Below are positions 8,808 to 27,108 of a DNA stretch of 29,851 nucleotides, in pieces. Every line of letters begins with the position of its first letter. Position 1 is the stretch's first letter. Both the position numbers and the translations under genes were made by a program. The notes under the pieces are model-generated. The model searched no databases. It was not told the origin of the DNA and was given only the letters and a program-made list of their open reading frames with translations. The DNA comes from a virus (taxonomy: Duplodnaviria; Caudoviricetes): positions 1 through 29,851 of IMG/VR virus record IMGVR_UViG_3300031647_000041. One strand, given 5' to 3'.

Positions 8808-11800
8808 ATGGCTGAAGTTAAAAATGCTTTTATAAAGTCCAAGATGAATAAAGACCTGGATGACAGGTTGATACCATCTGGAGAGTATCGCGATGCACAG
8901 AATATTCAGATAAGTAGATCAGAAGGTTCAGATGTAGGAGCATTAGAGAACGTATTAGGTAATAAAGAAATATTATTTTCTTCTGCACAGTCAAGTTTTT
9001 CTACACTTGTAGGAGCACCTAATATAAAATGCATTGGTCAATTTGTAGACGAAAACAATACAACTATATATAGCTTTTGGACTGACAATTTTGACACCCA
9101 AGCTAGTAGTAGAATAATATATAATTCCGCGGCTAAAAACTATATACTTGCTTACAGCACAAACGGTAGTGATAACTACAAGGTATTAGTGGAAGGTGCT
9201 TTTTTAAATTTCTCTCAAACAAATCCTATAATAGGTGTTAACGTGATAGAAGGTCTTTTGTTTTGGACAGATGATAGAAATCAACCAAGAAAAATAAATG
9301 TTAACTTAGCTAATCCATCTTCAAACCCTTCAAACACTTATGCTGTACCAACTTATTATACAGTAGAAGATTCTATATCTGTATCTAAATACAACCCATA
9401 CGAACCAATACAAGTTTTAAATGTTAGTTCTTTAGCAGCAGCAGACGTTGCAACGGCCAATGTTAACGGTGCTGTTGATAATTCAAAAACTATTGTAATT
9501 GATGGTATCACTGGAACAATTGCTTTAGGGTTAGGTGTGTCAGGAACAGATGTAAAAAGTGGAACTATAGTAAATAAAATAAATAGTGCAACTAGTTTTA
9601 ACACTAACAAAGCTAATACTATTGCTAATGATACTATTTTAACACTAAGAGGTTTAGAAACTACAATGTATGATGTTAGCTCTGCTAAACTACCAGATGG
9701 AACTACAGATAATCCTTACGAACAAGCTGATTATGGTGGTGATCCACAGTTTTTAGAAGATAAATTTATAAGATTTAGTTATAGATTTAGATTTGATGAT
9801 GGTGAATATTCTATATTTGCACCATTTACACAGCCAATGTTTATTCCTAAACAAGATGGTTATTTTCAAGGCGACGATGAAAAGCTTGCTTATGAAAGTA
9901 CTATTGTAGAATTTATGGAAAACAAAGTAACTAAAATAGACTTGTTAATACCTCTTCCCTCTACAAGACTAGCTTTACAAACAATAAATACATCTGCATT
10001 TAAAATTCTTGAAATTGATATTCTATATAAAGAATCTGATGGGCAAGCTATAAGAGTTGTAGATACTGTTAAGGTAGAAAACCAAGCCCCTTGGAGCGAC
10101 AGCCCTGCTGATAATGTATTTATTTATTCTTACGAATCTACAAAACCTTATAAAACTTTACCTACAGCTGATTTAATTAGAGTATACGATAGAGTTCCTG
10201 TTAGAGCTAAAGCTCAAGAGCTTGTTAGCAATAGAATAGTTTATGGAAACTTTCAAGACAAGCATACGCCACCTGCGGCTTTAGATTATCAAGTAGGTGT
10301 TTCAGATAAGTCAGCAGATAATGTAGCCACCGGTAGTCAAACTAGAACTGAATATCCTAACCATACTGTAAAACAAAATCGTAATTATCAAGTTGGTATT
10401 GTTTTATCAGATAAATTTGGTAGACAATCATCCACTATCTTATCTAATAGTACAGCGCCTTTAGCTTTAAATCAATTTGGTGCTGACACTGTTTATAGTC
10501 CTTACAGGTGTGATCCTACAGTGGCGGGTTGTGGAGATTCAACTGCTCCAACTTGGCCAGGCGATTCTTTAAAAGTATTGTTTAATGAAACAATAAACAG
10601 TAACTCACCTGCTGTAGCTAATAGAAGTTTAGGTACACCAGGGCTTTATAATGGAGATACAGCAAACGCTGCTTACAATCCTTTAGGTTGGTTTTCCTAT
10701 AAAATAGTAGTTAAGCAACAAGAGCAAGAATATTACAACGTGTACTTACCGGGTATTATGAAAGGTAATCCTGACGGTACTGAGACCGGAGGTCAATTAT
10801 CTAATATAGTTTTAATAAATGATAATATAAATAAAGTTCCTAGAGATCTTACAGAGGTAGGTCCTCAGCAACAACAGTTTAGAAGTTCAGTTCAATTGTT
10901 TGGTAGAGTTCAAAACGATACTGTAGCTACATCGGTAACTGGAAATGAACAAGTTTTTCCAGGTAGATTATCCGACACAGTAAGTACAATATCTGTAGTA
11001 AGACAGTTGTTTGATGTTGCAATTCCAATTGTTCCTGCTGTACCTATATTTGGTTTTTATAATGCTAAATCAAATCCTTTGATTGGTCAAGTAATAACTA
11101 GCCAAGCTCTTGGTATGGTTAACACTATAGCGTCAGGTTCTTACCCTGTATTAGAAAACTTAGCGGTTGTTGAAACAGAACCCGATGTATCTAGATTAGA
11201 TATTTACTGGGAAACTTCTACAGCTGGATTAGTTAGTGAATTAAATACAGCGGTGGCAACTGATACAGGAGGAGCTCAAGCAACCTCAGGGTTTACACTT
11301 GCTTTAAATGAAGGTATGGTTACAGATACAGCAGTTGCCGGACCTTTTTTTGGTATAGATGTTATAGGAGCTAGGCTAAGTAATGCAAGAATAAAGACTG
11401 CTTATGCTGACAACGAATGGTCTGTAACAAATGGAGCTGGTACAGATGTAACCGCAAGCTTTGTTTTAATAGAGACAGGTGATGGAACTGCTGGCTCAAA
11501 ATTTGGATATACTTTAAAAACTGTTGGTACTTTTTATTATGGTCTTAATGCTGCAACTACAGGAAATTTTTCTTTTAGTTTTACTTATAGACTATGGAAC
11601 ACTGCATCAACTCCACCAGCTTACTTTGATAATGCTTTTACAATACCACCGGTAATGTCTGGTTTATTAGGAAACGAACCACCAACTATAACTGGAACGT
11701 GCCCTAGATCTATACAAGTAACCACTGATGATTTGCCTACAATAGCAACATTGGTTGGTAAAAACGGATCCGCAGACACATCTAGAGATACAGATGATTT

Positions 11801-12968
11801 AACCTGGACAATTACGTCTCAATCACAAAACGGTAGCGCTGTAAGCATTTTTACAATGACTACTACAAATAATCAAGGCGTTATAACTGCATCCACTGGA
11901 GCAGCGGCTTATATTGTTGTGGCTAGAGTAACTGACGCAGGTGGTAAAACAACCGACTGTACTTTAAACATAACAATAGGTCAACCAGAAGTTCCTAGTA
12001 GATTTAAAATACCTTTTATAGCACCATTATTTGATGGTGATGGAACTAGGTATTATTTTGCAAATAATTACACTAACTTAGATCAAATAACAAGTGCTAT
12101 TTCTCAGTCTTTTGCTTGGATAACACCAAGTATAAATCCTTTAGTAAGCCCTGCCACGTCTAATTCAACAGACTATTGCAGTGTGCCAGGTCCCGGTTCT
12201 CCTGGTAATGGAAATTATGTATTTTTAAGAGAAAAAATATCTGCTGGTTTAGGCGCAGGTGAGGGAGCTTTCTATGTGCAGTTTTTTGCTAACGCACCAG
12301 CAACAACACCATCAACTACATCACAAACCTTTAATCCTGTTTCAGCGGTGGTAGAGTATAGAGTAAATTCTTCAGCTAACTGGATTATTGCTCAGACGGT
12401 TGATAATAGTTTACTTCAAACAAGTAATAATATTTCTAATACTAAAGCACAATACAATGGTGCGGTTTCGGGTGTGCCAACAGGAGAAGGAGGACTTACT
12501 GGTATAGGTGGAAACAATAATGAAATGACTTTATCCGGCACAACAGGTGGAACATCTGGTGTTAAGAGAGTATTTGCTTTTGATATACCAGGTGAATATA
12601 GAATAACAATGGGTGCTTTAAACGGGCAGGTTTGTAACTACGCAGATTGTACGCTTACAAAAAACATGTCTGCATCTCAAGGTTTTACAACTGGTGATTA
12701 CAGTTATGCTGGTGGTGTAAGTACGCCGCAGCAATATCAATACAATGTAGGTGGAACTACATATTATGCTAAAGAACATATAACTAAATATGTAACTCAA
12801 TTTTATACAGACTTGGCTTTAACTACAAAAGCTACTATTACTGCAGGAAATTATAATTTCTTTAGACCTAATGTTAACTGGGAGTATACTAAAAATGGAT
12901 CATACACTGCAGACTTTAGTTCATCTGCAAAAAGAACTTCAGTGTCCGCTTTAGTTACATATCCATAG
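8808..12968 (+). CDS. Tail nozzle/stabilisation protein, N-terminal part, with a C-terminal beta-rich (Ig-like/adhesin-like) extension
   Basis: 1386 aa; KMNKDLDDRL..GEYRDAQNI start, LLFWTDDRNQPRKIN, IRFSYRFRFDDGEYS and RIVYGNF motifs recalled from crAss-like stabilisation proteins; last ~560 aa T/S/G-rich. Confidence 0.65.
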   Translation: MAEVKNAFIKSKMNKDLDDRLIPSGEYRDAQNIQISRSEGSDVGALENVLGNKEILFSSAQSSFSTLVGAPNIKCIGQFVDENNTTIYSFWTDNFDTQASSRIIYNSAAKNYILAYSTNGSDNYKVLVEGAFLNFSQTNPIIGVNVIEGLLFWTDDRNQPRKINVNLANPSSNPSNTYAVPTYYTVEDSISVSKYNPYEPIQVLNVSSLAAADVATANVNGAVDNSKTIVIDGITGTIALGLGVSGTDVKSGTIVNKINSATSFNTNKANTIANDTILTLRGLETTMYDVSSAKLPDGTTDNPYEQADYGGDPQFLEDKFIRFSYRFRFDDGEYSIFAPFTQPMFIPKQDGYFQGDDEKLAYESTIVEFMENKVTKIDLLIPLPSTRLALQTINTSAFKILEIDILYKESDGQAIRVVDTVKVENQAPWSDSPADNVFIYSYESTKPYKTLPTADLIRVYDRVPVRAKAQELVSNRIVYGNFQDKHTPPAALDYQVGVSDKSADNVATGSQTRTEYPNHTVKQNRNYQVGIVLSDKFGRQSSTILSNSTAPLALNQFGADTVYSPYRCDPTVAGCGDSTAPTWPGDSLKVLFNETINSNSPAVANRSLGTPGLYNGDTANAAYNPLGWFSYKIVVKQQEQEYYNVYLPGIMKGNPDGTETGGQLSNIVLINDNINKVPRDLTEVGPQQQQFRSSVQLFGRVQNDTVATSVTGNEQVFPGRLSDTVSTISVVRQLFDVAIPIVPAVPIFGFYNAKSNPLIGQVITSQALGMVNTIASGSYPVLENLAVVETEPDVSRLDIYWETSTAGLVSELNTAVATDTGGAQATSGFTLALNEGMVTDTAVAGPFFGIDVIGARLSNARIKTAYADNEWSVTNGAGTDVTASFVLIETGDGTAGSKFGYTLKTVGTFYYGLNAATTGNFSFSFTYRLWNTASTPPAYFDNAFTIPPVMSGLLGNEPPTITGTCPRSIQVTTDDLPTIATLVGKNGSADTSRDTDDLTWTITSQSQNGSAVSIFTMTTTNNQGVITASTGAAAYIVVARVTDAGGKTTDCTLNITIGQPEVPSRFKIPFIAPLFDGDGTRYYFANNYTNLDQITSAISQSFAWITPSINPLVSPATSNSTDYCSVPGPGSPGNGNYVFLREKISAGLGAGEGAFYVQFFANAPATTPSTTSQTFNPVSAVVEYRVNSSANWIIAQTVDNSLLQTSNNISNTKAQYNGAVSGVPTGEGGLTGIGGNNNEMTLSGTTGGTSGVKRVFAFDIPGEYRITMGALNGQVCNYADCTLTKNMSASQGFTTGDYSYAGGVSTPQQYQYNVGGTTYYAKEHITKYVTQFYTDLALTTKATITAGNYNFFRPNVNWEYTKNGSYTADFSSSAKRTSVSALVTYP

Positions 12969-12998: not shown

Positions 12999-14486
12999 AT
13001 GGGAGCTATTATAGAGGTAAAATACTTTAATTCTTTTCTTTTGAAAAAGACTTACAACAAAGCAGTTGGTATTGCAGCGCCTAAATGGAATGGATCATTT
13101 GGTGTTCCGTTAGGTGTAGCAGGTCATTACCCTGTTTTTACAGCAAGCGACACTGAAGCTACGGATAGTTGGGCTATAGAAGAATCTAGAATAAGAGGTG
13201 GATACAACAATACAAACATAGACTACGGAGTAAAAGCTTATTTAGTAGAAGATGAACCTAATTCTTCTATAAGATTTAATTCTATGATTTATTCTGGAAT
13301 TTTTAATTCAAGAACTGGTATAAACAATACTAATGAATTCTCTGTAGGTACAGATATAACTAAATCAACAGATCCTATCAATGGATCTATACAAAAACTA
13401 TATGCTGAAGATACGGCGTTACTTATATTTCAACAAGACAAAGTTAGTAGAGCTCCAATAGATAAAGATGTTATATACAATGCTGAAGGTGGTGGGAGTT
13501 TAACCGCATCTAATATGGTTATAGGTGATATAATACCTTATGCAGGTGAATATGGAATGAGTAATAATCCTGAAAGCTTTGCCGTATATGGGTACAGAAA
13601 ATACTTTACAGATAAAAATAGAAATGCTGTTTTAAGACTGTCTAGAGATGGTATAACAGAAATCTCTCAATATGGTATGATTGATTACTTTAGAGATCAA
13701 TTTGGTACCTTAAACACACCTACGTTTGGTAAAGGAAAAGCAATAGGAGCTTATGACATATACAACAAACAATATGTATTATCTTTACAACAAAGTCCTG
13801 TCGCTGACAATGGAGATATTAATCCAAGTCCGTTAACAGCTACAATAACTTTTGATGAAAGAGTTTTGGGTTGGACTAGTTTTTTCTCTTACACACCAGA
13901 TCAAACTCTTAGTTTACAAAACAATTACTACAGTTTTAAAACTCTTCCTGTTACTAATGCAGCAGGTGAAATTACAGGTTATACAAACGGTGGATTTTAT
14001 CAACACTACGATATTTCTCAAAATAGAAATACATTTTATTCTACAGCCTATGACTCGTCTATAAAGTTTGTATTTAATCCCGCGGTAAGTGCATCTAAAG
14101 TATTTAAAACAGTTAACTACGAAGGTGGAAATGGATGGGAGATAAGTAAATTTGAAGCTGCAAGATCTTTTGAACTAGTTGATTCATGTAAACCAGTGTT
14201 AAGCTATAATGACGGTGCTTATGATTCTGCTACACCACCTAAGACAGGTGCAGCGGCAACAACACAACCAATATTTTATGCAGGCTTTGTTAAAAAAGAA
14301 GGCAAATATTTTGCTAACTTAATTAACTCAAGTTCTGCAACGGCAGGTGAAATTATCTTTGGTGCATCAATGACTGGTGTTAAAGGTTATTTTGCAACTG
14401 TCACAATAGAATCAGACACAACATCTAGGATTAAACCTATGGAGTTGTTTGCTGTTTCATCTGACTACGTAGAGTCATCATATTAA
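12999..14486 (+). CDS. Tail nozzle/stabilisation protein, C-terminal part
   Basis: 495 aa; GSIQKL, YAGEYGMSNNPESFA, YFTDKNRNAVLRLSRDG, GWTSFFSY, KVFKTVNYEG and KKEGKYFA beta-propeller-type motifs. Confidence 0.65.
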   Translation: MGAIIEVKYFNSFLLKKTYNKAVGIAAPKWNGSFGVPLGVAGHYPVFTASDTEATDSWAIEESRIRGGYNNTNIDYGVKAYLVEDEPNSSIRFNSMIYSGIFNSRTGINNTNEFSVGTDITKSTDPINGSIQKLYAEDTALLIFQQDKVSRAPIDKDVIYNAEGGGSLTASNMVIGDIIPYAGEYGMSNNPESFAVYGYRKYFTDKNRNAVLRLSRDGITEISQYGMIDYFRDQFGTLNTPTFGKGKAIGAYDIYNKQYVLSLQQSPVADNGDINPSPLTATITFDERVLGWTSFFSYTPDQTLSLQNNYYSFKTLPVTNAAGEITGYTNGGFYQHYDISQNRNTFYSTAYDSSIKFVFNPAVSASKVFKTVNYEGGNGWEISKFEAARSFELVDSCKPVLSYNDGAYDSATPPKTGAAATTQPIFYAGFVKKEGKYFANLINSSSATAGEIIFGASMTGVKGYFATVTIESDTTSRIKPMELFAVSSDYVESSY

Positions 14487-15789: not shown

Positions 15790-17538
15790 ATGGGATACTC
15801 AATACCAGGAGCAGATTTTACAACACCTGCACAGTTACAAACAAACGTTGGAGCCGAAACAGGACGAACCGTAGGAGGAATGCTTGCTCAATTTGGTAAG
15901 CAATTACAGTTGGCTAATGTACAAGCTAAAAAAACAGAAGCTTTACAGGGTCAAATGGAAGATAGCATAATGGTAACCAATAGTAAAATTACTAATACAG
16001 CTCTTGCAGCAGGAAAAGAAAAGTTTGGTAATAATAATGTTTTGTATGATGAATGGAAGGAAGAGGTTCTCAAAAGAGGTGCTCAAGCTACTCAAGATCA
16101 AATAGATTTTCGTTTTGGTGGATTAACCGGTGAGGCAAAAGCAGCAAAGCTAGCAAGTGCTAATGGTTTTGACACTTGGCTGGATGAAAGTCAAAAAAAT
16201 ATGGGTAGACTTTTAACTGATGTCATGGGTAGAGCTGAAGCTGGCACAAGAATAATAGGTGATCCAACTAATAGTGAGCAACAATTGAATCAAATTATTT
16301 TAAGTGCTAATGGAGGGGAAAGTGCTGTGGCTAATTTTGGAGAAGGTGCAACAATGACTAGATCATTAAGTGGTGACAATAAAGAAATCGTTAATACTCT
16401 TGTTAGAATACCTGTTAATTCAGAAACCTTAACAACATTAAATAGTAAAAGTGGTGGAACAGCAATAAGTGTTTATGAAAAAGGCGTAGAAGAAGGTATA
16501 ATAAAGAAAAACGTAGGTGAAGATGGTATGTATTATTATGAATTTGAAAAACAAATAGATACAAGTTCTTATTCTAGACCAGGAGGAGCTGATTTTGTTA
16601 TAGAAAACGAAGTAGCAATAGATTCTGGTCAAACTTTTCAAGATTTAGGTTATTTAGATAAAAACATGATTTTAAAGCCATCCATGTATGCCACTGTAGG
16701 TGGAGGTGAACTTACAGAGGACGGTGCGGACGTAGATGCTCCTAAAGGTGAGCCTGCTTCATTTACTTCAAACTCTACTAAAGGTGCTGCACCAGGATAT
16801 ACAAAAACAACTACTTCAAAAATTATTGGCATTAATAAAATGTATAATAGTCCAGCTTTAGCAGTACAAGTAAATGCTGCAACTGACGGTATATTATTAA
16901 GTTCAAGAAAAACAGATGCTAAAATAGCTAGTTTTGCTGCCTATGGAGTTGTTAGTTTAGATGATTTTCCTGATATGAAAAAGGAGCATGGTTCTTTAAG
17001 AAATTTTTTACAATCAGGTGATAAAGATAAAGTAAAAGCTTTTACAAAAAGAACGATTCAAGAAACTATGTTTAAAGATTTATTTAATAAAACTGATAAC
17101 AGAGGTGATAGAGTTTATTCACAAACAGAATTGAAAGATCCAAAGCTTCTTAAATATTTAAATGATAATAATATTATGAATTCAGTTGGTCAACCCTATG
17201 CAATGGGTGAAACTGTTTATAGTAAAAATGAAGTAAAAGAAACAAAAATTCTTGACGAAAAAGGATTAAGTTTTAATCAAAATTTATACAAAAATCTTAA
17301 AGCTGGTGGAGACAATTTAGCAGCATTGTTCCAAACTCCAGTGCAAATGCCTGGAGCAGGTAATTCTCAAGTAATGTTTTTCCCAGCAAGTGGAGATGGA
17401 AAAGGTAATAATTCAGCTGGTGTTTACAGGATAGCAACACAAGGTATAGATAAAGGTCAAAAAGCAGATGGGGCTAGCAACTTAAGTCCAAATGAAGATT
17501 TTACAAATTTAACATTTCAGTTTAAAAATCAAAAATAA
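15790..17538 (+). CDS. Putative ejected internal virion protein (medium)
   Basis: 582 aa, helical N-terminus, between the small and giant internal-protein genes; no catalytic motif recognised. Confidence 0.5.
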   Translation: MGYSIPGADFTTPAQLQTNVGAETGRTVGGMLAQFGKQLQLANVQAKKTEALQGQMEDSIMVTNSKITNTALAAGKEKFGNNNVLYDEWKEEVLKRGAQATQDQIDFRFGGLTGEAKAAKLASANGFDTWLDESQKNMGRLLTDVMGRAEAGTRIIGDPTNSEQQLNQIILSANGGESAVANFGEGATMTRSLSGDNKEIVNTLVRIPVNSETLTTLNSKSGGTAISVYEKGVEEGIIKKNVGEDGMYYYEFEKQIDTSSYSRPGGADFVIENEVAIDSGQTFQDLGYLDKNMILKPSMYATVGGGELTEDGADVDAPKGEPASFTSNSTKGAAPGYTKTTTSKIIGINKMYNSPALAVQVNAATDGILLSSRKTDAKIASFAAYGVVSLDDFPDMKKEHGSLRNFLQSGDKDKVKAFTKRTIQETMFKDLFNKTDNRGDRVYSQTELKDPKLLKYLNDNNIMNSVGQPYAMGETVYSKNEVKETKILDEKGLSFNQNLYKNLKAGGDNLAALFQTPVQMPGAGNSQVMFFPASGDGKGNNSAGVYRIATQGIDKGQKADGASNLSPNEDFTNLTFQFKNQK

Positions 17539-17541
17539 AAT

Positions 17542-20500
17542 ATGGAAGTATATATACTCAATGGAGTAGAAATAACTCTAGAAGACTTACAGGGTTTAGT
17601 GGAAAAGTCGGGCTATAGTTTAGAAGATTTTAAAGCTATTAATGGTGTAACAGTAAAGAAAAAGGATGTTGCGGATCAGGGTGCGACTGTAACATCCAAA
17701 GATACCGAAGCATCTTGGGAATCACGATTGGAAAATACCAGATCGGATTGGGAAAAATATCGTAAAAGTCAACTTCTAAATAAAGAAGGTAAGTATGATC
17801 CTAATTTACAAACAGACCCTAACCACAGGATGCCTGATGGAAGTCAAAACTATATAAACAAACGAAACGAATTTACTATTAAAGAAAGAGAATTAAATGA
17901 TAAAATTGAGGGGTATTATTTAGACCCTAAAAATATGGATTTTAATAAGCCTAAAACAATTTTAAATCAAGGCGAGGATACTGTAAAAGAATATATAAGA
18001 GAAAAATTTCCATTTTATAATGTTGAGGATGGCACAGCAGGTAATTTACTTAAAATACAAACAGCAGAGGGTTTTAAAGAAATAGATTTAAACCCTTTGT
18101 TTAGTGATAATAAAAAAGAAGCTATAGAAACTATAAAATATTTAGAGCAAGCTGCTAAAGATATTGAAGATGATGTGGTTGTAGGTTTAGTCATGAATAA
18201 ATTAGCTGATAATATTAAAGACACTGGTGATGTTAGCTCTGTTAATACTTATTTAAAAGACAATACTCCTTATCAGATTGAAAAAACAATAGTACCTGGC
18301 AAAACCTCTACTGGATTACAAGGTGTTTCTACACCAGACACTACTATGTATAACATAGTAAAAGATGGTGAAATAATTAGTTCTTTACCTATAGATAAAG
18401 TTGATGATTTTTTAAGAGATAATATAACTCAAGAAGAATTCAACAGCATGAATACAACTTCTGTTAAAGCTTTAGAAACTGTAACTGGAATGAGAAGAGC
18501 TTATATTGAGCAACAGCAGGATATTGTAGAGGTAAAACCTGCTACTAAAATTAAATATTATAAAGATGATTTTGGAACAGATGTTTTAAAGGTTCTTGAT
18601 AGGTTAAATTTTACAGACGAAGAAAAACAAACTGTAGAAAAATATATAGCTAACACTCAAAGTCAGAAAGGTGAAATGCAGCTTGCTACCGCACCTGGTA
18701 TGGCCCGTAGACAAGGCGCATCACCATATCAAATAATACAAGAGCTTACAGCTTTAGATGGTTTACCAGACGATTTAAAAGAAAAATTAATAAACGCTGG
18801 ATTTATTGATGAAATGAAAACCGTTGTAGATGCAGGGATAAAAAACACTGCTTTTAAAGAAGTTAACAAAGGTATACCCACTATGCTAGAAGACATGTTA
18901 ACTCAATTTGATAAAGGTGAATTACTGGACTTAGCTAATTATTTTAATGAAAATATAGCTGGAGCTGAAAAAGATGAAGAAGGAAATATAATTAAAGGAG
19001 AGTTTGTTAAAAAAATTAATGTAGATAACTTAGATTTAGATGGTAGTATTAAAGATCAAATAAAAATAGGTGGTGATATTTCTGATACTAATAAATTTAT
19101 AATTAAAAGATCTTATCAGAAAAAAGAAAAAGAAGCTATAAAAGCTTATGAAGATTTTTATCCTGCTAAAATGGATTCACTAACAAAAGAAGTAATATCT
19201 TTAGGTGAGCAATTACCTGAAGATGCTTATATCTATACAGCTAACACGCCTAGTGGACCATTGTTAAGAATAAAAATTGACAGAAAAGTTTCAGCTTCTG
19301 AAAATGAAACTATAAAAAATATAAGTGGAAAACTTGCTGGCATACAAAGTACATATCACAACTTAGAGTTTGATAGAAAAAATTCTGCTGATAAAATAAT
19401 AAACAATCGCAACGCATTCTATGATCAATTACAAGATGCAGAAAAAAATGATGATATAATTGCCACTGCTAATAAAGAATTTGGATTAGGTAATTTATTA
19501 GTTAAAGATATTAACGATGCTTTCTCTAGTCTTGCATTGACAGTTCCCACATTATTTAATTCTGAATGGGCTATAGGTAAACAAAAGCAATTAAACGATA
19601 AGAACGATTATTATAAAACAATGACTGAGCCTGAATTTAGTGCTGAGTATATTCTTAGAACTTTAGGGCAACAGTCGGCAAACATTACATTAGCAGTAGC
19701 TACGGCGGGAGCTGGATCTGCTTTAGGATTAACAACAGCAACGGTAGCCAATACAATAGGTATAGGTTTTGGTGCTGTGTCAGGAACGCAAACTTTCAGA
19801 GATTTAAACATAGAAGTTGACACATACGAAGAAGCGGAGAGGCAAGAGAAAATATACAAGGCTGCTTATAAAAGAGGTGAAATTAGTGAGTATAATTATA
19901 CTATGGCCATGAGAGATATAAACACTACTCTGGCTATGGACAAGTTAACTCCTGACCAAATAATGAATGCATCTCTTTCCAACGCAATAATAGAAGGTAC
20001 ACTTACTAGATATTTAGGTACAGCTGCTAACTCTATAGCTTTAGTAAAAAACTTTAATAGCGTAAACGTAGGTGAAATTGCCAAACAATTAAACAAAAGC
20101 GGTTTTACCAAAGGAATAAATTTAATAGGTAGACCTTTAGTAGGTAGAACTGGTCTGGAGACTGTAGAGGAATTAGGTATTTTTGCTGGTCAAAACTTTA
20201 TAACTGATACGGCTATACTAGGTAGAGGTGCAGACAGAGAAACATTTTTAAAAGGTGCTAATGAAACTTTTTGGGCAACTGTAGTTACAGCTGGTATGTC
20301 TCAGTCAACAGGTATAACATACGGTGGAATGAATTCCTATGGTATTACAAAAAAGTATGAAAAGATTTTAAATGGAAGTAATTTTTTTTTAAATGATTTA
20401 TCTAGTTCTATACAATCTCTTTCAGATTCTAAATCAGATCAAGAAGTAAAAAAATTACTTTTATTTCAATATCAAGAAGAGTTAAAAGCTATGGGCTTGA

Positions 20501-23500
20501 CTATTGATGAAAACTCTATAGATCTTTTAAACATTAGTAATGAAAACACAGACGGATCATCTGATTTAAAAAACTTAATAGGTACTCAATTAATAAAACA
20601 AGATTATTTGAGGAGTTTAGGTATACAACCAGGTACTAATGCTCAACAAGATTCAGCTATAGAAGCTTTAAAAGATAATTCAAGCGAACAACAAAAAAAA
20701 GATATAGAAACAACCTTAAGTAGTTTAGATACTCAAATAAACAATATAAAAGAAAAAGCGTCTAAGGCTTCTAATTATGATGTTGCTAAAAAAGCTTTAG
20801 GAAGTATTTACACTTTTTATGACAATCAATTAAAAGGTGATACTGAATATGATGCAGCTTCTACAAAAAATAAACTTGTTAAAATAATTAACAATGTAAG
20901 AGAAGATACTCGTTTGCAAAATATTAAAAATGCCAAGTCAAATCCTTTTGTTGTTAAACAAGTGGAGTCTATGTACGCTGGTCCTGGTTTTGCAAGCAAT
21001 AAAACTAAAGATACAACTTACGAAAACCTAGGAGCAAACATGGCTTTGAATCAAGGTAGAGCTTATAGTACTAGTTTAAACGTAAACATACAAGCTAGTA
21101 CAATATTTGGTAAAGATTTAAAATCAGTTAATGTTGTAGGTTACGAAAATGATGAGCAAATTGGTAAAGAACTAGAAAAAGCAGGTTTAACACCTGAGGA
21201 AATCGTTACTGCTATTGATAAAATAAAAAATAATAAAGCTTTTGGTTTAGTTTTTGGAAAAACTATATTTACTCAAAGCCCTGATTTAGCTAATGAAAAT
21301 TTAGACAACGGAGAAATACAAGCAGGAACTGTTATACTACATGAGCTTACGCATATTACTAAAGATGCTGACATGAAATCTCCTGAATCAAAAAAGAAAT
21401 ATTTTGATAATCTATTTCTAGCTGCTTCAACAAGTAGCAATCAAGCATTAGTAAGTATACATCAACAAACTGTTGGATTATTAGGAAATAAAACAGAAGA
21501 AAACAAAGCTAAATGGGAGGATGAATATAGTAATATTTTACAAGAACAACTTTATTATTATGAAAAAGAAGTACAACTAGAAAAAGATGATAGTTTTATT
21601 ACAAAAATATTTGGTAGAGCAAATCCAGCTAATTTAAATACTCCTGAAAAAGCTTTAGATTATTTAGCGGCTAGTAATTCTGCTTTTAGAAAAGGTAAAA
21701 TATCTAACGCTACTCAAAAATCTGTCGAAAGTTTTGAAGGTAGTAACTTAAAAGGATCTGTAAAAAATATAAACAAATTAGTAATAGGTAAAACTTATGA
21801 TCAATTAAAAAATGATCCAGAATTTAGAAGGCAATACGATAATGTTGCGGTAAAAGCAATGAAGTTTGACCAGGAGTTAGGAAATGAAATAAACAGAAAA
21901 ACAGTTCTTGGAGAGGCTTACATACAACTTCCAAGTATTATAAAAAACTACAAACCAGTAAACGAAAAAGGCGAATCACAAACTTTTACTAACTATGTTT
22001 ATCAAACTTTAGATCCGCAAAAAAGAACAGCTGCATTTTATAGAAAAGAGCTTGGTGAAATACCAACTCAAAAAATTGGTAAGATGCAATTGATAGGCGA
22101 TGAAGACGCTGATGCTAATATCAAAAGAGAAGCTAGGGAAAAACTAGAGGGCAAAGGTAAATCATTAATAAAAACAAATGAACTGCGTGGTGTTAAAAAT
22201 AAACTAACAGAAGTAGACGAAGCTATAGGTGATATTGACCGAATAGAATTTGCTAATCTTTTAGATAGTAGATCTGGTGAATTAGATTTTGCAAAAATAA
22301 ATGAAGAATATGGTAGCGAAGTTGCAGGTGCACTTTATGGTTTAAACCCTAAGGATGCTATAAATTTAGCTAAAAAATTTAAAAAAGGTGCTGACTTAAC
22401 TTACGGACAAAACAAAAGAGAAAAAGGAAGTAAATTAATTTCAGAAGCAGAAAGAATACAAAGCGATTATACTAGTATTCAAGATGCAAAAGAAATGATT
22501 TCTTTGTTTCCTGAATATAACATAAGCACACCAACAGCTGTTACCTCTAAAACAGGTCAAGAAACAAAAACAAGTGAACTTGTACAGGGTAGATCATTAG
22601 GAACTGCACCAGCTGTATTAGATTTTTTCTATGAACCTTATACAGATCCTAAGTCTTTAAATAAAAAAACTAAAAAAGATGCTATAACAAATCCTTCAGG
22701 AAGATCTAAAGGTAAAACAAGTCAAGTAAATGTTGTAAGATTAAAACCAGAGTTTAATTATAAAGCTGGAAGTATTACTAATGCCGCTGTTGTTAGGGCA
22801 CAAAGAAAAATAGGTATTACAAAATCAGGTAAACTTAACGTACCGCCTAAAGGCAAAGCAAGAACAGACTTTGGTAGACTACTTATAGGTCTTGCGAACC
22901 TTAAAGGAGCTATAGTAGCAAACACAGCTGTTGATACAAAGGTGAAAAAAGGTATTAAAGATGGTACAATAAAAACCGCTAAGTCTGCATTGCAAATAGA
23001 AGCAGATTTAAAAGCTGGTAGAAGTAGAATACAATATAGCGAAAAGTTAAAACAAGGTAAACAAACTATAGATGCAGTATATGATTTTGCTAGAAATAAA
23101 GAAGCTGCAAAATTATTTGGCCCGGTGTTTTTAACTTTTTTTAACGCTAATGTTAATGCTGACGCTGGATTCAGGGGTGTAATTTATAATCCTATCTCAG
23201 GGATAGAAGAGTCAAGTAAAGGTGCTTTTAATACTGGTAGAAGTTTTATATCATCACTTAAAAAGCTTAGGTTTAAATATGGTAAAAGTAATCCAGAAAT
23301 AGTAGCTGCTACCGAAAGTTTAATAGCTGAAGGAAAACTAGGTGTACTAGAAGACGTTCTTAAAATAGCTCAAAAAACATTAAACGAGGTTGCTGTTGAT
23401 GCAAAACCTTCCGATAAGGATGTTGAAAACAATAACGCTATGAGAATGGCGATGGCTCCTCAAGATTATACTAAATATAAAAACTCTAATAAAAAGAATT

Positions 23501-26500
23501 TAAAAACTCTTAAAAAAGGAAAAAAATTAATATTGTCTAAGTTTAAAGAGTTGTATGATTCAAATAATAAGTTGCTTCCTCTTATACAATACGTAACTTA
23601 TGCGGTTAATTCTAATTCTCACCCATTTAGAAATTTAGCAATATTAGAAGGTGGGGTTGAATATGGCTATGAAGAACACATGCTGCAATATAAGCCTTTT
23701 GTAGATACTTTTATAGCCGCAATAAAATCAACTAAAACAGATTTTGATGGCTTTATTGAATGGGCTAATGATACTTATTTTCAAGAATCTATTACTAAAC
23801 AAAATTTAAAGGGAGAGGCTAATGGCATGGCGCAGTCTGTATTAGATCAAGCATCAAGAAATATAAATAGATTTACCAATGAAATAATAACACCTTGGCG
23901 TTCTCAATTTGAGATGCACCCTTTAATGAAAAAGCAAGTTAAAGAAGCATTGGAAGGTAAAAGAAAATGGGAGGATGTTATAAGTGTTGATATAAGAAAA
24001 TATAATGAATACAATTATAAATCTGATTATGGTTTAATAAATCCTAACGTTCAATCAAGGTTTGGTATTACAGATGCTCAAAAATATAATGTGGTTGTTC
24101 CGTCACAATTTAAATTTGATCCTACAATTATTGCCGTACAAAACAAAGCTATTTACGAGTACTTACTAGGTAATATTAGTAAGGCAGAAGCTATGGTAAA
24201 AGTACAGCTTGAAGTTAATAAAACTTTTAAACCTAATGCAACTGTAGTTATAGCTAAAAATAACAAAGCTGACAAAGCTATGGCTGACGCTAGAAATAGT
24301 ATTAAATATAATGAAAAAAGAAAAGGTATTAGTGTGTTTGATTTTGATGACACGCTTGCTCAGTCTAATAGTAACGTATTATATACAATGCCTGATGGAA
24401 CAACAGGTTCTCTTACGGCAGGTGAATTTGCTGTAAAAGCTTTAGATTTAACTAACTTAGGTGCTAAGTTTGATTTTAGTGAGTTTAACGAGGTTAAAGA
24501 AGGTAGAAAAGGTCCACTAGCAGATGTTGCTTTAAAAAGACAAGGTAAATTTGGTAGCAAAGATATATTTGTGTTAACAGCCAGACCTCAAGCCGCAGAC
24601 ATAAACATTAAAAAGTTTTTAGAAGAAATTGGTTTAAATATACCTTTAGAAAATATAACTGGTTTAGAAAACGGCACCGCTGAGGCTAAAGCCGAATGGA
24701 TGATAGGTAAATATGCTGATGGATATAACGATTTTTATTTTGCTGATGATGCTTTTAAAAACGTTGAAGCTGTTAGAAATGTATTTGATGTATTGGATGT
24801 CAAGTCTGACGTACAACAAGCAAGACTTAAGTTTAGTGAAAAACTAGATAAAGACTTTAACGACATGATTGAAAGAAACATGGGTGTTAAGTCAGAATAT
24901 ACTTACTCAGATATTTTAGCAAGGCGAAAAGGTAGAAATCAAAAACGATTTGCATTTTTTATACCTCCTTCAGCTGATGACTTTAGAGGCTTAACCATGT
25001 ACACATTTGCTGGCAAAGGTAAGCAAGGTGAATTAGATCAAGAGTTTTTTGACAAAGCTTTAATTAAGCCTTACATGAGTGGAATAAACGCTATGGAATT
25101 AGCAAAAAATAAGATTAAAAATGCTTATAAAATTTTAGAAAAAACTAGTCCTAAAGTTAGAAAAAAATTAAAGAAAAAAATTGGTGACACTAAGTATACT
25201 AACGACGAAGCTATAAGAATTTATCTATGGAATAAGGACGGGGCAATAATACCTGGACTATCTAAAACAGATCAAAATCAAGTAGTAAAATTAGTGGAAG
25301 CAGACGTAGATTTAATGGCTTTTGCTGAAGGTGTTAAACTAATTACAGAAAAAGATACTTATGTTCCACCTAATGAATACTGGGATGGTACTACTATTAT
25401 AGGTGACTTAAGTAGATTGTCTAAAGAAATTAATAGAGATGAGTACTTAAAAGAGTTTAAAGACAATGCTGATATATTATTCACTGATAAAAACATGAAT
25501 AAAATAGAGGCTGTGTATGGTTTTAGGGTAAGAGAAGCTTTAGAAAACTCTTTATATAGAATGAAGACTGGTAGCAATAAAGCCGCTGGATCAGGTAGAA
25601 TAGTAACAGCTTGGAACAACTGGGTTAATAACTCTGTTGGTGCTATCATGTTCTTTAACAGAAGATCTGCATTGCTACAAATGTTATCTGCTGGTAACTT
25701 TGTTAACTGGTCAGACAACAATCCTTTAAAAGCTGGTTTAGCATTTGCTAACGCGCCTCAATACTGGAAAGATGTTGTATACTTATTTAATTCACCTAAA
25801 CTAAAAGCTAGAAGACAAGGCTTAGAAGGTGACATACAAGAAAAAGAAATAGCTGAAGCTTCAAGAAGAGGCGGTATGGAAGGTGCATTATCTTATTTAT
25901 TAAAAATAGGTTTTACCCCTACACAAATTGCAGATAGTATAGCAATATCTACTGGTGGTGCTTCGTTTTACAGAAATAGAATTAATACTTATAAGAAAGA
26001 AGGTTATACAGTTGAAGATGCAGAGAAAAAAGCTTTTGATGATTTCTCAGCTATATCAGATGAAACACAGCAATCGGCTGACCCTATGTTAATATCCTCT
26101 CAGCAAGCAGGTGTGTTAGGTAGGTTAGTATTATCTTTCCAAAATACTCCGATGCAGTACACTAGGTTAATGAAAAAAGCTGGTCAAGATCTTATAAACA
26201 ATAGAGGTGATGCTAAAACAAATATATCTAAAATATTATACTACGGATTTATTCAGAATTTAATATTCTCTACATTACAAAATGCTATGTTTGCTTTAGT
26301 ACCTGGGTTTGAAGACGATGAAGAAGAACCTGATTTCAAAACAGACAAAGAAAGAGATGCTTGGTTAAAGAAACAAGGTGGTAAAGAAAGCGCTAAAATA
26401 ACTAGAGTTGCAAATAACATGCTAGATACTATTTTAAGAGGTTCTGGTTTGGCTGGAGCAGTTGTATCTACTATCAAGAATGTTATTATAGAATACACTG

Positions 26501-27108
26501 ATAGACAAGACATGGGTATATTAGCTAAATCCAGAGCTAACGCAGATCTATTAATAGCCTTAACTAGCATATCTCCACCTATTAGTTCTAAAATAAGAAA
26601 AGTAAACAAGGCTTTAGATTTAGAAGATTTTGAAAAAGATGTTATTGCTGAAAGAGGTTATAGCGTTACAATAGATGGTAAGTTTCAGTTGAGTCCTTCA
26701 TATAATGTAATTGGTAACGTTGCCTCTGCTACCTTAAATCTACCTTTAGATAGAGTTTTTGATGAAGTTAATTCTATTACAGAAGCTTTAGACGATAGAA
26801 ATAGTGCTTATCAAAGATTAGCTTTAGGTTTAGGTTGGAAAACGTGGGATGTTAATGCTAAGATAGAAGAGCATGATCTTATAAAGACTAACGCAAAAGC
26901 AAAAAGAAAAATTGAAGGTAAAGAAAAAAGTAAACAAACTAGAGAAAATAATAAAGAAATACTAAAAACTCACAAAAGATTAAGATCACAAGTTTTAAAT
27001 GCTTTACCTGGTGTTATGCGAGATAGTATAAGACGTAAAGAAAAAGAAGATAATAAGATAACAGCAATATATAAATTAAATCAATTAAAAGCAAAATACA
27101 TTGAATAA
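17542..27108 (+). CDS. Giant multidomain (polyvalent-type) virion protein with zincin HExxH and HAD-phosphatase domains
   Basis: 3188 aa; VILHELTH (HELTH at 21340-21354); HAD motifs DFDDT (24340-24354), LTAR (24574-24585), K, FADD (to 24750); G/A-rich hydrophobic segment ~19684-19785; helical, partly hydrophobic C-terminal domain. Confidence 0.75.
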   Translation: MEVYILNGVEITLEDLQGLVEKSGYSLEDFKAINGVTVKKKDVADQGATVTSKDTEASWESRLENTRSDWEKYRKSQLLNKEGKYDPNLQTDPNHRMPDGSQNYINKRNEFTIKERELNDKIEGYYLDPKNMDFNKPKTILNQGEDTVKEYIREKFPFYNVEDGTAGNLLKIQTAEGFKEIDLNPLFSDNKKEAIETIKYLEQAAKDIEDDVVVGLVMNKLADNIKDTGDVSSVNTYLKDNTPYQIEKTIVPGKTSTGLQGVSTPDTTMYNIVKDGEIISSLPIDKVDDFLRDNITQEEFNSMNTTSVKALETVTGMRRAYIEQQQDIVEVKPATKIKYYKDDFGTDVLKVLDRLNFTDEEKQTVEKYIANTQSQKGEMQLATAPGMARRQGASPYQIIQELTALDGLPDDLKEKLINAGFIDEMKTVVDAGIKNTAFKEVNKGIPTMLEDMLTQFDKGELLDLANYFNENIAGAEKDEEGNIIKGEFVKKINVDNLDLDGSIKDQIKIGGDISDTNKFIIKRSYQKKEKEAIKAYEDFYPAKMDSLTKEVISLGEQLPEDAYIYTANTPSGPLLRIKIDRKVSASENETIKNISGKLAGIQSTYHNLEFDRKNSADKIINNRNAFYDQLQDAEKNDDIIATANKEFGLGNLLVKDINDAFSSLALTVPTLFNSEWAIGKQKQLNDKNDYYKTMTEPEFSAEYILRTLGQQSANITLAVATAGAGSALGLTTATVANTIGIGFGAVSGTQTFRDLNIEVDTYEEAERQEKIYKAAYKRGEISEYNYTMAMRDINTTLAMDKLTPDQIMNASLSNAIIEGTLTRYLGTAANSIALVKNFNSVNVGEIAKQLNKSGFTKGINLIGRPLVGRTGLETVEELGIFAGQNFITDTAILGRGADRETFLKGANETFWATVVTAGMSQSTGITYGGMNSYGITKKYEKILNGSNFFLNDLSSSIQSLSDSKSDQEVKKLLLFQYQEELKAMGLTIDENSIDLLNISNENTDGSSDLKNLIGTQLIKQDYLRSLGIQPGTNAQQDSAIEALKDNSSEQQKKDIETTLSSLDTQINNIKEKASKASNYDVAKKALGSIYTFYDNQLKGDTEYDAASTKNKLVKIINNVREDTRLQNIKNAKSNPFVVKQVESMYAGPGFASNKTKDTTYENLGANMALNQGRAYSTSLNVNIQASTIFGKDLKSVNVVGYENDEQIGKELEKAGLTPEEIVTAIDKIKNNKAFGLVFGKTIFTQSPDLANENLDNGEIQAGTVILHELTHITKDADMKSPESKKKYFDNLFLAASTSSNQALVSIHQQTVGLLGNKTEENKAKWEDEYSNILQEQLYYYEKEVQLEKDDSFITKIFGRANPANLNTPEKALDYLAASNSAFRKGKISNATQKSVESFEGSNLKGSVKNINKLVIGKTYDQLKNDPEFRRQYDNVAVKAMKFDQELGNEINRKTVLGEAYIQLPSIIKNYKPVNEKGESQTFTNYVYQTLDPQKRTAAFYRKELGEIPTQKIGKMQLIGDEDADANIKREAREKLEGKGKSLIKTNELRGVKNKLTEVDEAIGDIDRIEFANLLDSRSGELDFAKINEEYGSEVAGALYGLNPKDAINLAKKFKKGADLTYGQNKREKGSKLISEAERIQSDYTSIQDAKEMISLFPEYNISTPTAVTSKTGQETKTSELVQGRSLGTAPAVLDFFYEPYTDPKSLNKKTKKDAITNPSGRSKGKTSQVNVVRLKPEFNYKAGSITNAAVVRAQRKIGITKSGKLNVPPKGKARTDFGRLLIGLANLKGAIVANTAVDTKVKKGIKDGTIKTAKSALQIEADLKAGRSRIQYSEKLKQGKQTIDAVYDFARNKEAAKLFGPVFLTFFNANVNADAGFRGVIYNPISGIEESSKGAFNTGRSFISSLKKLRFKYGKSNPEIVAATESLIAEGKLGVLEDVLKIAQKTLNEVAVDAKPSDKDVENNNAMRMAMAPQDYTKYKNSNKKNLKTLKKGKKLILSKFKELYDSNNKLLPLIQYVTYAVNSNSHPFRNLAILEGGVEYGYEEHMLQYKPFVDTFIAAIKSTKTDFDGFIEWANDTYFQESITKQNLKGEANGMAQSVLDQASRNINRFTNEIITPWRSQFEMHPLMKKQVKEALEGKRKWEDVISVDIRKYNEYNYKSDYGLINPNVQSRFGITDAQKYNVVVPSQFKFDPTIIAVQNKAIYEYLLGNISKAEAMVKVQLEVNKTFKPNATVVIAKNNKADKAMADARNSIKYNEKRKGISVFDFDDTLAQSNSNVLYTMPDGTTGSLTAGEFAVKALDLTNLGAKFDFSEFNEVKEGRKGPLADVALKRQGKFGSKDIFVLTARPQAADINIKKFLEEIGLNIPLENITGLENGTAEAKAEWMIGKYADGYNDFYFADDAFKNVEAVRNVFDVLDVKSDVQQARLKFSEKLDKDFNDMIERNMGVKSEYTYSDILARRKGRNQKRFAFFIPPSADDFRGLTMYTFAGKGKQGELDQEFFDKALIKPYMSGINAMELAKNKIKNAYKILEKTSPKVRKKLKKKIGDTKYTNDEAIRIYLWNKDGAIIPGLSKTDQNQVVKLVEADVDLMAFAEGVKLITEKDTYVPPNEYWDGTTIIGDLSRLSKEINRDEYLKEFKDNADILFTDKNMNKIEAVYGFRVREALENSLYRMKTGSNKAAGSGRIVTAWNNWVNNSVGAIMFFNRRSALLQMLSAGNFVNWSDNNPLKAGLAFANAPQYWKDVVYLFNSPKLKARRQGLEGDIQEKEIAEASRRGGMEGALSYLLKIGFTPTQIADSIAISTGGASFYRNRINTYKKEGYTVEDAEKKAFDDFSAISDETQQSADPMLISSQQAGVLGRLVLSFQNTPMQYTRLMKKAGQDLINNRGDAKTNISKILYYGFIQNLIFSTLQNAMFALVPGFEDDEEEPDFKTDKERDAWLKKQGGKESAKITRVANNMLDTILRGSGLAGAVVSTIKNVIIEYTDRQDMGILAKSRANADLLIALTSISPPISSKIRKVNKALDLEDFEKDVIAERGYSVTIDGKFQLSPSYNVIGNVASATLNLPLDRVFDEVNSITEALDDRNSAYQRLALGLGWKTWDVNAKIEEHDLIKTNAKAKRKIEGKEKSKQTRENNKEILKTHKRLRSQVLNALPGVMRDSIRRKEKEDNKITAIYKLNQLKAKYIE
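17653..17765 (+). other. Candidate -1 frameshift cassette (GTA_AAG, 5-nt spacer, H-type pseudoknot) with a 35-codon -1 frame
   Basis: Stem 1: 17664-17674 with 17687-17697 (11 bp). Stem 2: 17677-17684 with 17710-17717 (8 bp). The -1 frame ends at TAA 17763-17765. Confidence 0.7.

Follow-up and report, generated by a model that had tools for sequence, protein, structure and literature searches.

The window analysed here is the whole 29,851-nt stretch of a linear virus record, from an uncultured marine phage, that is 46% complete. Profile searches against Pfam and PHROGs found that it encodes a terminase, a portal, virion proteins and crAss-type muzzle domains, and no transposase family was found among its 18 proteins. 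The relatives of the phage are of the podovirus type. Its portal is 41–49% identical to those of Elemovirus, the Maribacter phage Panino and MW202828, 34% identical to that of Callevirus and 26–28% identical to those of Pachyviridae; judged by these identities, its host would be a member of the Flavobacteriia. The muzzle-like protein is split over two genes (8808–12968 and 12999–14486), the first matching the start of phrog_14478 and the second its positions 919–1216 together with the muzzle C-terminal Pfam domain. The two genes share a frame, and the several stops that lie between them, after the TAG, rule out a readthrough joining them.

The virion block closes with its largest gene (17542–27108, plus strand), which encodes a giant protein of 3188 residues. 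Its place in the block, together with the annotation by mass spectrometry of the phi18:3 gene at the corresponding position as a virion protein, suggests an ejection or cargo role. The giant protein gave no tblastn match in cultured phages and no Pfam match, hence no metal-binding domain was found. A HAD/polynucleotide-kinase-like stretch was detected at residues 2256–2443 (window 24307–24870, plus strand; phrog_415, E 3e-7), in the part of the protein that is common to 80 homologues. The first 38 codons (17542–17655) form an acidic N-terminal module that the giant shares with the predicted short product described below. Neither this N-terminus nor the -1 tail matched anything in Pfam or PHROGs; the predicted fold of the module in a related in-frame database protein has the order strand-strand-helix-helix, with pLDDT about 80. 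The same type of module heads unrelated proteins of 235–500 residues in G+C-rich phages without the cassette (L211–L223), which makes it portable. One small ORF in Pachyviridae corresponds to the module; its structural annotation derives from its similarity to a phi8:3 protein.

Codons 38–41 of the giant gene are GTA AAG AAA AAG. They contain the heptamer A_GTA_AAG (17652–17658, plus strand), whose A_AAG tetramer (17655–17658) is in register with the 0 frame and which allows re-pairing of the A-site Lys-tRNA only; the same heptamer is found in L001–L003. A second possible heptamer, G_AAA_AAG (17658–17664), was rejected as the main slip site since it abuts stem 1 without a spacer and is absent from L002 and L003. 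A 5-nt spacer (17659–17663) separates A_AAG from the pseudoknot, within the 5–8 nt downstream of the slip motif at which the stimulators of IS3-type signals begin (PMC4066793). Stem 1 pairs 17664–17674 with 17687–17697 (11 bp, two of them G-U). Stem 2 is formed by the arms 17676–17684 and 17710–17718: 17677–17684 pairs with 17710–17717 over 8 bp, which grow to 9 bp with U17676-G17718. Stem 1 is worth -15.3 kcal/mol on the plus strand and -7.6 on the minus strand, and the stem 2 duplex -10.6 and -2.6 kcal/mol, respectively. When the window was scanned with approximate stacking energies, this pseudoknot scored best among 985 in-register sites and among all positions of the plus strand, and the fold of the cassette has z = -3.2. 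Rfam 15 holds no family matching 17300–18100, giving a single chance match (E 2.3).

After the slip, the -1 frame (17655–17765) encodes 36 residues with a net charge of +4 and ends at the stop 17763–17765. Upstream it carries TAA at 17631 and 17640 and is then open from 17643 to 17762, with no ATG, GTG or TTG ahead of a cluster of Cys codons (17667–17690) that overlaps the stems and whose motif is not conserved. The chance that a random -1 position stays open for at least 35 codons is 0.26%. A slip at codon 39 would thus give a predicted product of 74 residues as against the 3188 of the full giant. Near the end of this frame lies a 13-codon core (17712–17750) with the pattern hydrophobic-G-x3-G-K-aromatic-x2-G-hydrophobic, which is predicted to form a beta-hairpin and is the unit under selection. 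In the 0 frame, codons 39–68 are the least codon-adapted 30-codon window of the entire giant gene. The original prediction had described the slippery site and pseudoknot at these positions, pairing that works on one strand, unusual 0-frame codons near the slip site, and a -1 frame with stops just upstream and no start before the Cys cluster; all of this holds on the sequence.

Contigs from runs X9 and X7 cross the cassette and are identical to the window there, which argues that it is not an assembly error. Strain variants within the stems (17666 A>G, 17679 G>A, 17690 T>C and 17692 A>G) keep the pairing in four of four cases. Coverage by the RNA runs X19 and X20 (7% of words) does not span the cassette; it takes in just the final bases of the -1 frame or misses the cassette altogether. 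In strains close to the window (runs X10, X13, X14 and X16) we also saw a block replacement within 17175–17652. The replaced block comprises the end of a 582-aa gene and the N-terminal module of the giant, and the window sequence resumes at or before the slip site; these two parts may be exchanged together.

Of 105 relatives of the C-terminal part of the giant, 80 were retained; 73 of these have a complete 5' end (70 distinct). The cassette is present in 31 of the 73, as picked by eye and then checked with a profile. In each of the 31 a stop-free -1 frame of 33–67 codons runs from a slippery site near the gene start and ends in the same peptide motif, L039 being atypical. The remaining 42 do not carry it, and a search of their loci turned up no separate gene encoding the peptide; the cassette is thus dispensable. 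On a quick tree of the giant gene it occurs on all main branches, with 13 label changes compared with 24 in shuffles, a pattern that fits either an ancient feature with frequent losses or an exchange of 5' ends. In three cassette-less relatives (L044, L046 and L051, near 16160–16220) a 364-aa gene lies 3' of the giant; an in-frame stretch of it scores like the weakest hairpin motifs, possibly by chance.

Loci were also chosen by the downstream motif alone. Two DNA patterns covering only the peptide-coding motif returned 45 + 55 loci, and 88 unique ones were left after removal of 12 duplicates. With 2.25 candidate sites searched per locus and a pseudoknot called at a score of -20 or better, an in-register slip site followed by a pseudoknot lies upstream of the motif in 63 of the 88, as compared with 8 of 688 control sites (a null of 1.2% per site). 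Under a stricter, fixed geometry the full pseudoknot is found in 24 of the 88. Another 20 loci have an A-run of 9–13 and no pseudoknot at -20, four have a slip site with weaker structure and one has neither; in 124 kb downstream of the motif loci there is only one A-run of 9 or more. The tetramer A_AAG occurs at 39 of the 63 slip sites against a background of 6.9%, and the slip motifs are canonical (G_GGA_AAG 17, A_AAA_AAG 7, G_GAT_TTT 7). Spacers measure 5 nt in 12 loci, 6 nt in 39 and 7 nt in 12, the search having been restricted to 5–7 nt. A stop follows 2–7 codons after the core in 86 of the 88. An ATG precedes the motif in the -1 frame in only two; we therefore rejected independent initiation of the -1 ORF, and reading the tail would need a shift. 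The slip site is thus conserved, as the original prediction expected.

Covariation, which was likewise expected, supports both stems. In 24 hand-picked related sequences of the commonest geometry we counted 53 two-sided changes against 18 +/- 3 in shuffles, and the stems are 91% paired as compared with 27–48% in slid controls, a percentage that is partly circular. Stem 2 provides a cleaner test than this percentage: 21 different 5' arms occur among 50 loci, and the arm finds a perfect complement in its own downstream sequence in 29 of the 50 but in only 54 of 2222 cross pairs.

We compared the two reading frames over the core. Among 26 distinct cores selected by homology, residue identity is 45% in the -1 frame and 29% in the 0 frame, the silent fraction is 27% and 10%, respectively, and variation peaks at the third position of the -1 codon. 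Of the 35 changes in seven disjoint close pairs, 16 are silent in the -1 frame and 6 in the 0 frame, where 22% is expected for each. Just downstream of the core the bias flips, with 5 of 20 changes silent in -1 and 10 of 20 in 0. The window and L001 differ by four changes in the part that encodes the hairpin; all four are silent in -1 and none in 0. As a counter-case, phi38:1 and Calle_1 have different residues at two tail positions, through changes that are silent in the frame of the giant. The comparisons indicate that the frame under selection in the tail is -1 and not that of the giant; the expected conserved -1 peptide is thus borne out. In many loci the core partly coincides with an arm of stem 2, so that some of its conservation would be RNA-driven. 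This overlap, and the fact that the Cys codons do come from the stems, agree with a pseudoknot that serves as a ribosome pause or as a protein-binding RNA element, with no shift and with the -1 peptide as a by-product of nucleotide conservation. Such an element would leave unexplained why A_AAG is enriched in register, why no stop interrupts the -1 frame between slip site and motif, why changes are silent in -1 and why the A-run loci keep the peptide without a pseudoknot, and we regard it as very improbable.

The product itself would have a single conserved unit, a C-terminal, basic, aromatic and Gly-spaced predicted hairpin. AlphaFold2, run on an alignment of 84 rows, places strands at 21–26 and 29–34 around a Gly-Lys turn with modest confidence (pLDDT about 67), and from the alternating pattern the large hydrophobic residues would lie on one face. 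In all cases the tail forms the C-terminus, contains many aromatic residues and has a positive net charge (+2 to +10). The Cys cluster, which had been put forward as a feature of the product, did not hold up as a functional one: Cys number 0–5 among the 63 pseudoknot loci and 0 in all 20 A-run loci, the near-invariant columns of the 84-row alignment include none, and the stretch is predicted to be unstructured (pLDDT <50). The cluster looks like a dispensable by-product of the stems, as the original caveat had it. In A-run loci the motif can come straight after the lysine run.

Searches beyond the loci returned little that bears on this product. P0001 found no usable match in the ESM Atlas, and its model (mean pLDDT 57) matched nothing among PDB and BFVD folds at E <= 0.001. 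Among 1.84 billion representatives, 28 database proteins matched in frame, all of the same family and nearly all of them an N-terminal module joined to the tail. Since the clusters of these proteins have a single member in 12 of 12 checked, and the gene of P0012 shows the standard out-of-frame layout in five of five contigs, we gave them no weight; they were treated as indel artefacts or rare variants and not as natural stand-alone genes. A longer fused form of the tail was sought by a weak test and none was found. A motif scan of bacterial and archaeal genomes gave 0 matches, and tblastn of one tail against cultured phages gave chance matches only.

Cultured relatives carry the A-run version, which makes the frameshift idea testable in Elemovirus, phi38:1, Calle_1 and Gundel_1. 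These four have A10 and MW202828 has A11, each in frame with the giant, and an aromatic -1 peptide follows the run in all five; in four of them its likeness to the motif is only loose. In phi13:2, phi18:3, phi19:3, phi46:3 and Panino the run is A9: the N-terminal module ends as a small ORF, the giant body is in the -1 frame of the module and the peptide in the third frame. At these junctions (L189:23119–23400 in phi13:2, L191:22119, L192:6056, L193:5310 and L186:35241 in Panino) GenBank has a separate small ORF or none, with the start of the giant placed downstream. This suggests that the giant virion genes of cultured Pachyviridae and Panino are annotated without their N-terminal module. One added A turns an A9 junction into the layout of phi38:1 and Gundel_1; the A9 layout reflects either an under-called homopolymer or obligatory slippage. 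A scan for environmental copies of the phi13:2 junction gave just four contigs, equal in length to the four isolate genomes. One locus (L108:1482–1820, minus strand) has A10 where its close relatives have A9, so that its N-terminal module reads directly into the hairpin tail and the giant is left out of frame. Runs of 9–13 A also contain the ribosomal motifs A_AAA_AAA/G. In three loci of this class (L100, L112 and L121) the first part of the motif itself folds into a 7-bp hairpin that shows one compensatory change; as this hairpin lies 3–6 nt after A_AAA_AAA, some A-run loci may still shift ribosomally. In the A-run lineages the shift likely comes about by slippage of the polymerase, of the ribosome or of both.

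The signal, its conservation, the selection on the -1 tail and the replacement of the pseudoknot by A9–A13 in other lineages are all evident at the level of sequence comparison. The best overall explanation, to which we give a probability of roughly 0.8, is that frameshifting yields a 74-residue isoform composed of the N-terminal module of the giant and a basic, aromatic tail predicted to form a beta-hairpin. At codon 39, with the ribosome stalled by the pseudoknot, the Lys-tRNA likely moves its pairing from AAG to AAA; through A_AAG and the pseudoknot together a minority of ribosomes would enter the -1 frame. From the comparative evidence we consider it highly probable that the shift takes place and that its product is synthesised. 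A_AAG is the most efficient tetramer with the IS3 pseudoknot in E. coli, where such tetramers reach at most 5.6% (PMC4066793), so the product of the window may be scarce; relatives with G_GGA_AAG should shift more (PMC5009743).

The shared N-terminal module would send the isoform wherever the giant goes, likely the assembling particle, where a cationic hairpin with one hydrophobic face would bind membrane or add onto the beta-sheet of a partner. No more than one copy of the isoform would be present for each giant protein, a ratio that speaks against its filling many symmetric sites. A role as an accessory adaptor is what we tentatively propose, at somewhat less than even odds. Less likely, the shift occurs and the short product works in the infected cell as a membrane-binding peptide, an assembly chaperone of the giant or a counter-defence factor. 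Its patchy presence on the tree fits an accessory gene, its tail is invariably positive, and CopA(Z) and lambda gpG/gpGT are examples of non-structural shift products (PMC5009743); against this, the isoform retains the N-terminal module of a probable virion protein, and the Pachyviridae small ORF for that module carries a structural annotation.

The original prediction had also allowed that the cassette throttles synthesis of the giant. The A_AAG pseudoknot shift with a product sharing the first 39 residues is supported by comparison, the shift itself remaining probable on those grounds; a pure throttle is unlikely because the -1 tail is under selection at the protein level. A variant of the throttle has the shift set the dose of the giant while the aromatic tail acts as a degradation tag that disposes of the truncated by-product and so keeps it from competing for binding sites. 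Lon-type proteases recognise exposed aromatic clusters, and the tail is always C-terminal with many aromatic residues. The fixed Gly spacing and alternating hydrophobic residues indicate a fold, however, a nearby stop could throttle without a conserved 13-residue core, and shifting of a few percent throttles little, all of which make this variant improbable.

Returning to the 74-residue isoform, a wider reading, which we offer as speculation, is that a large group of marine Bacteroidota podophages make an unannotated, membrane-active beta-hairpin microprotein, loaded into the particle by the module of the giant and produced interchangeably via a ribosomal frameshift at a pseudoknot or via polymerase slippage on an A-run. 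If so, the giant of cultured Pachyviridae and Panino might also need slippage, and their A9 sites would give three products each. Should the main explanation be correct, an unannotated gene product exists across a widespread group of marine phages. The loci would also amount to a natural collection of bacterial frameshift pseudoknots, dozens of them distinct, in a class with few known members, and one product would be reached via two recoding routes, as in dnaX. In the literature searched we found no paper on this frameshift site, and supplementary lists of predicted RNAs or frameshifts could contain the element; a paper on crAss phages, in the part of its text available, mentions frameshifts only for the disrupted polymerase genes of another group (PMC7886860).

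Among known systems, copA of E. coli likewise has an early, pseudoknot-stimulated -1 shift in a long gene, which gives a product, CopA(Z), of roughly 70 residues sharing the N-terminal domain (PMC5009743, PMC6182138). Unlike copA, which encodes a copper ATPase, the cassette has a phage virion context, with no metal-binding domain and no Pfam match. CopA(Z) stops almost at once after its shift, whereas here 36 trans-frame residues follow, 13 of them apparently under selection. IS3-family elements use the same A_AAG tetramer, pseudoknot stimulator and 5–8 nt spacing (PMC4066793). Their shift fuses two ORFs into a transposase, while here it would truncate the giant and the window holds no insertion-sequence genes; the cassette acts like an IS3 signal but is not an insertion sequence.

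In dnaX, a ribosomal -1 shift underlies tau and gamma in E. coli, and in Thermus thermophilus the polymerase slips on a 9-base run (PMC5009743). The likeness lies in a short isoform that some lineages obtain through a heptamer and structure and others through a homopolymer run; dnaX gamma is a plain truncation, whereas here the new frame would add a conserved tail and A-run slippage is the probable route. Lambda gpG/gpGT and T7 gene 10A/10B, as here, give two products with a common N-terminal part from a phage morphogenesis gene (PMC5009743), but those shifts fall near the gene end and lengthen the protein, while here the site falls within the first 2% of the gene and the protein would be 43-fold shorter. 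Moreover, lambda G/GT is a tail chaperone of a long-tailed phage, and the site described here is codon 39 of 3188 in a short-tailed phage with crAss-type muzzle genes. What appears to be new is the RNA element and the peptide family, the recoding principle being already known. Altogether, the cassette combines the layout of CopA(Z), the signal of IS3 and the two routes of dnaX, and is a member of none of these families.
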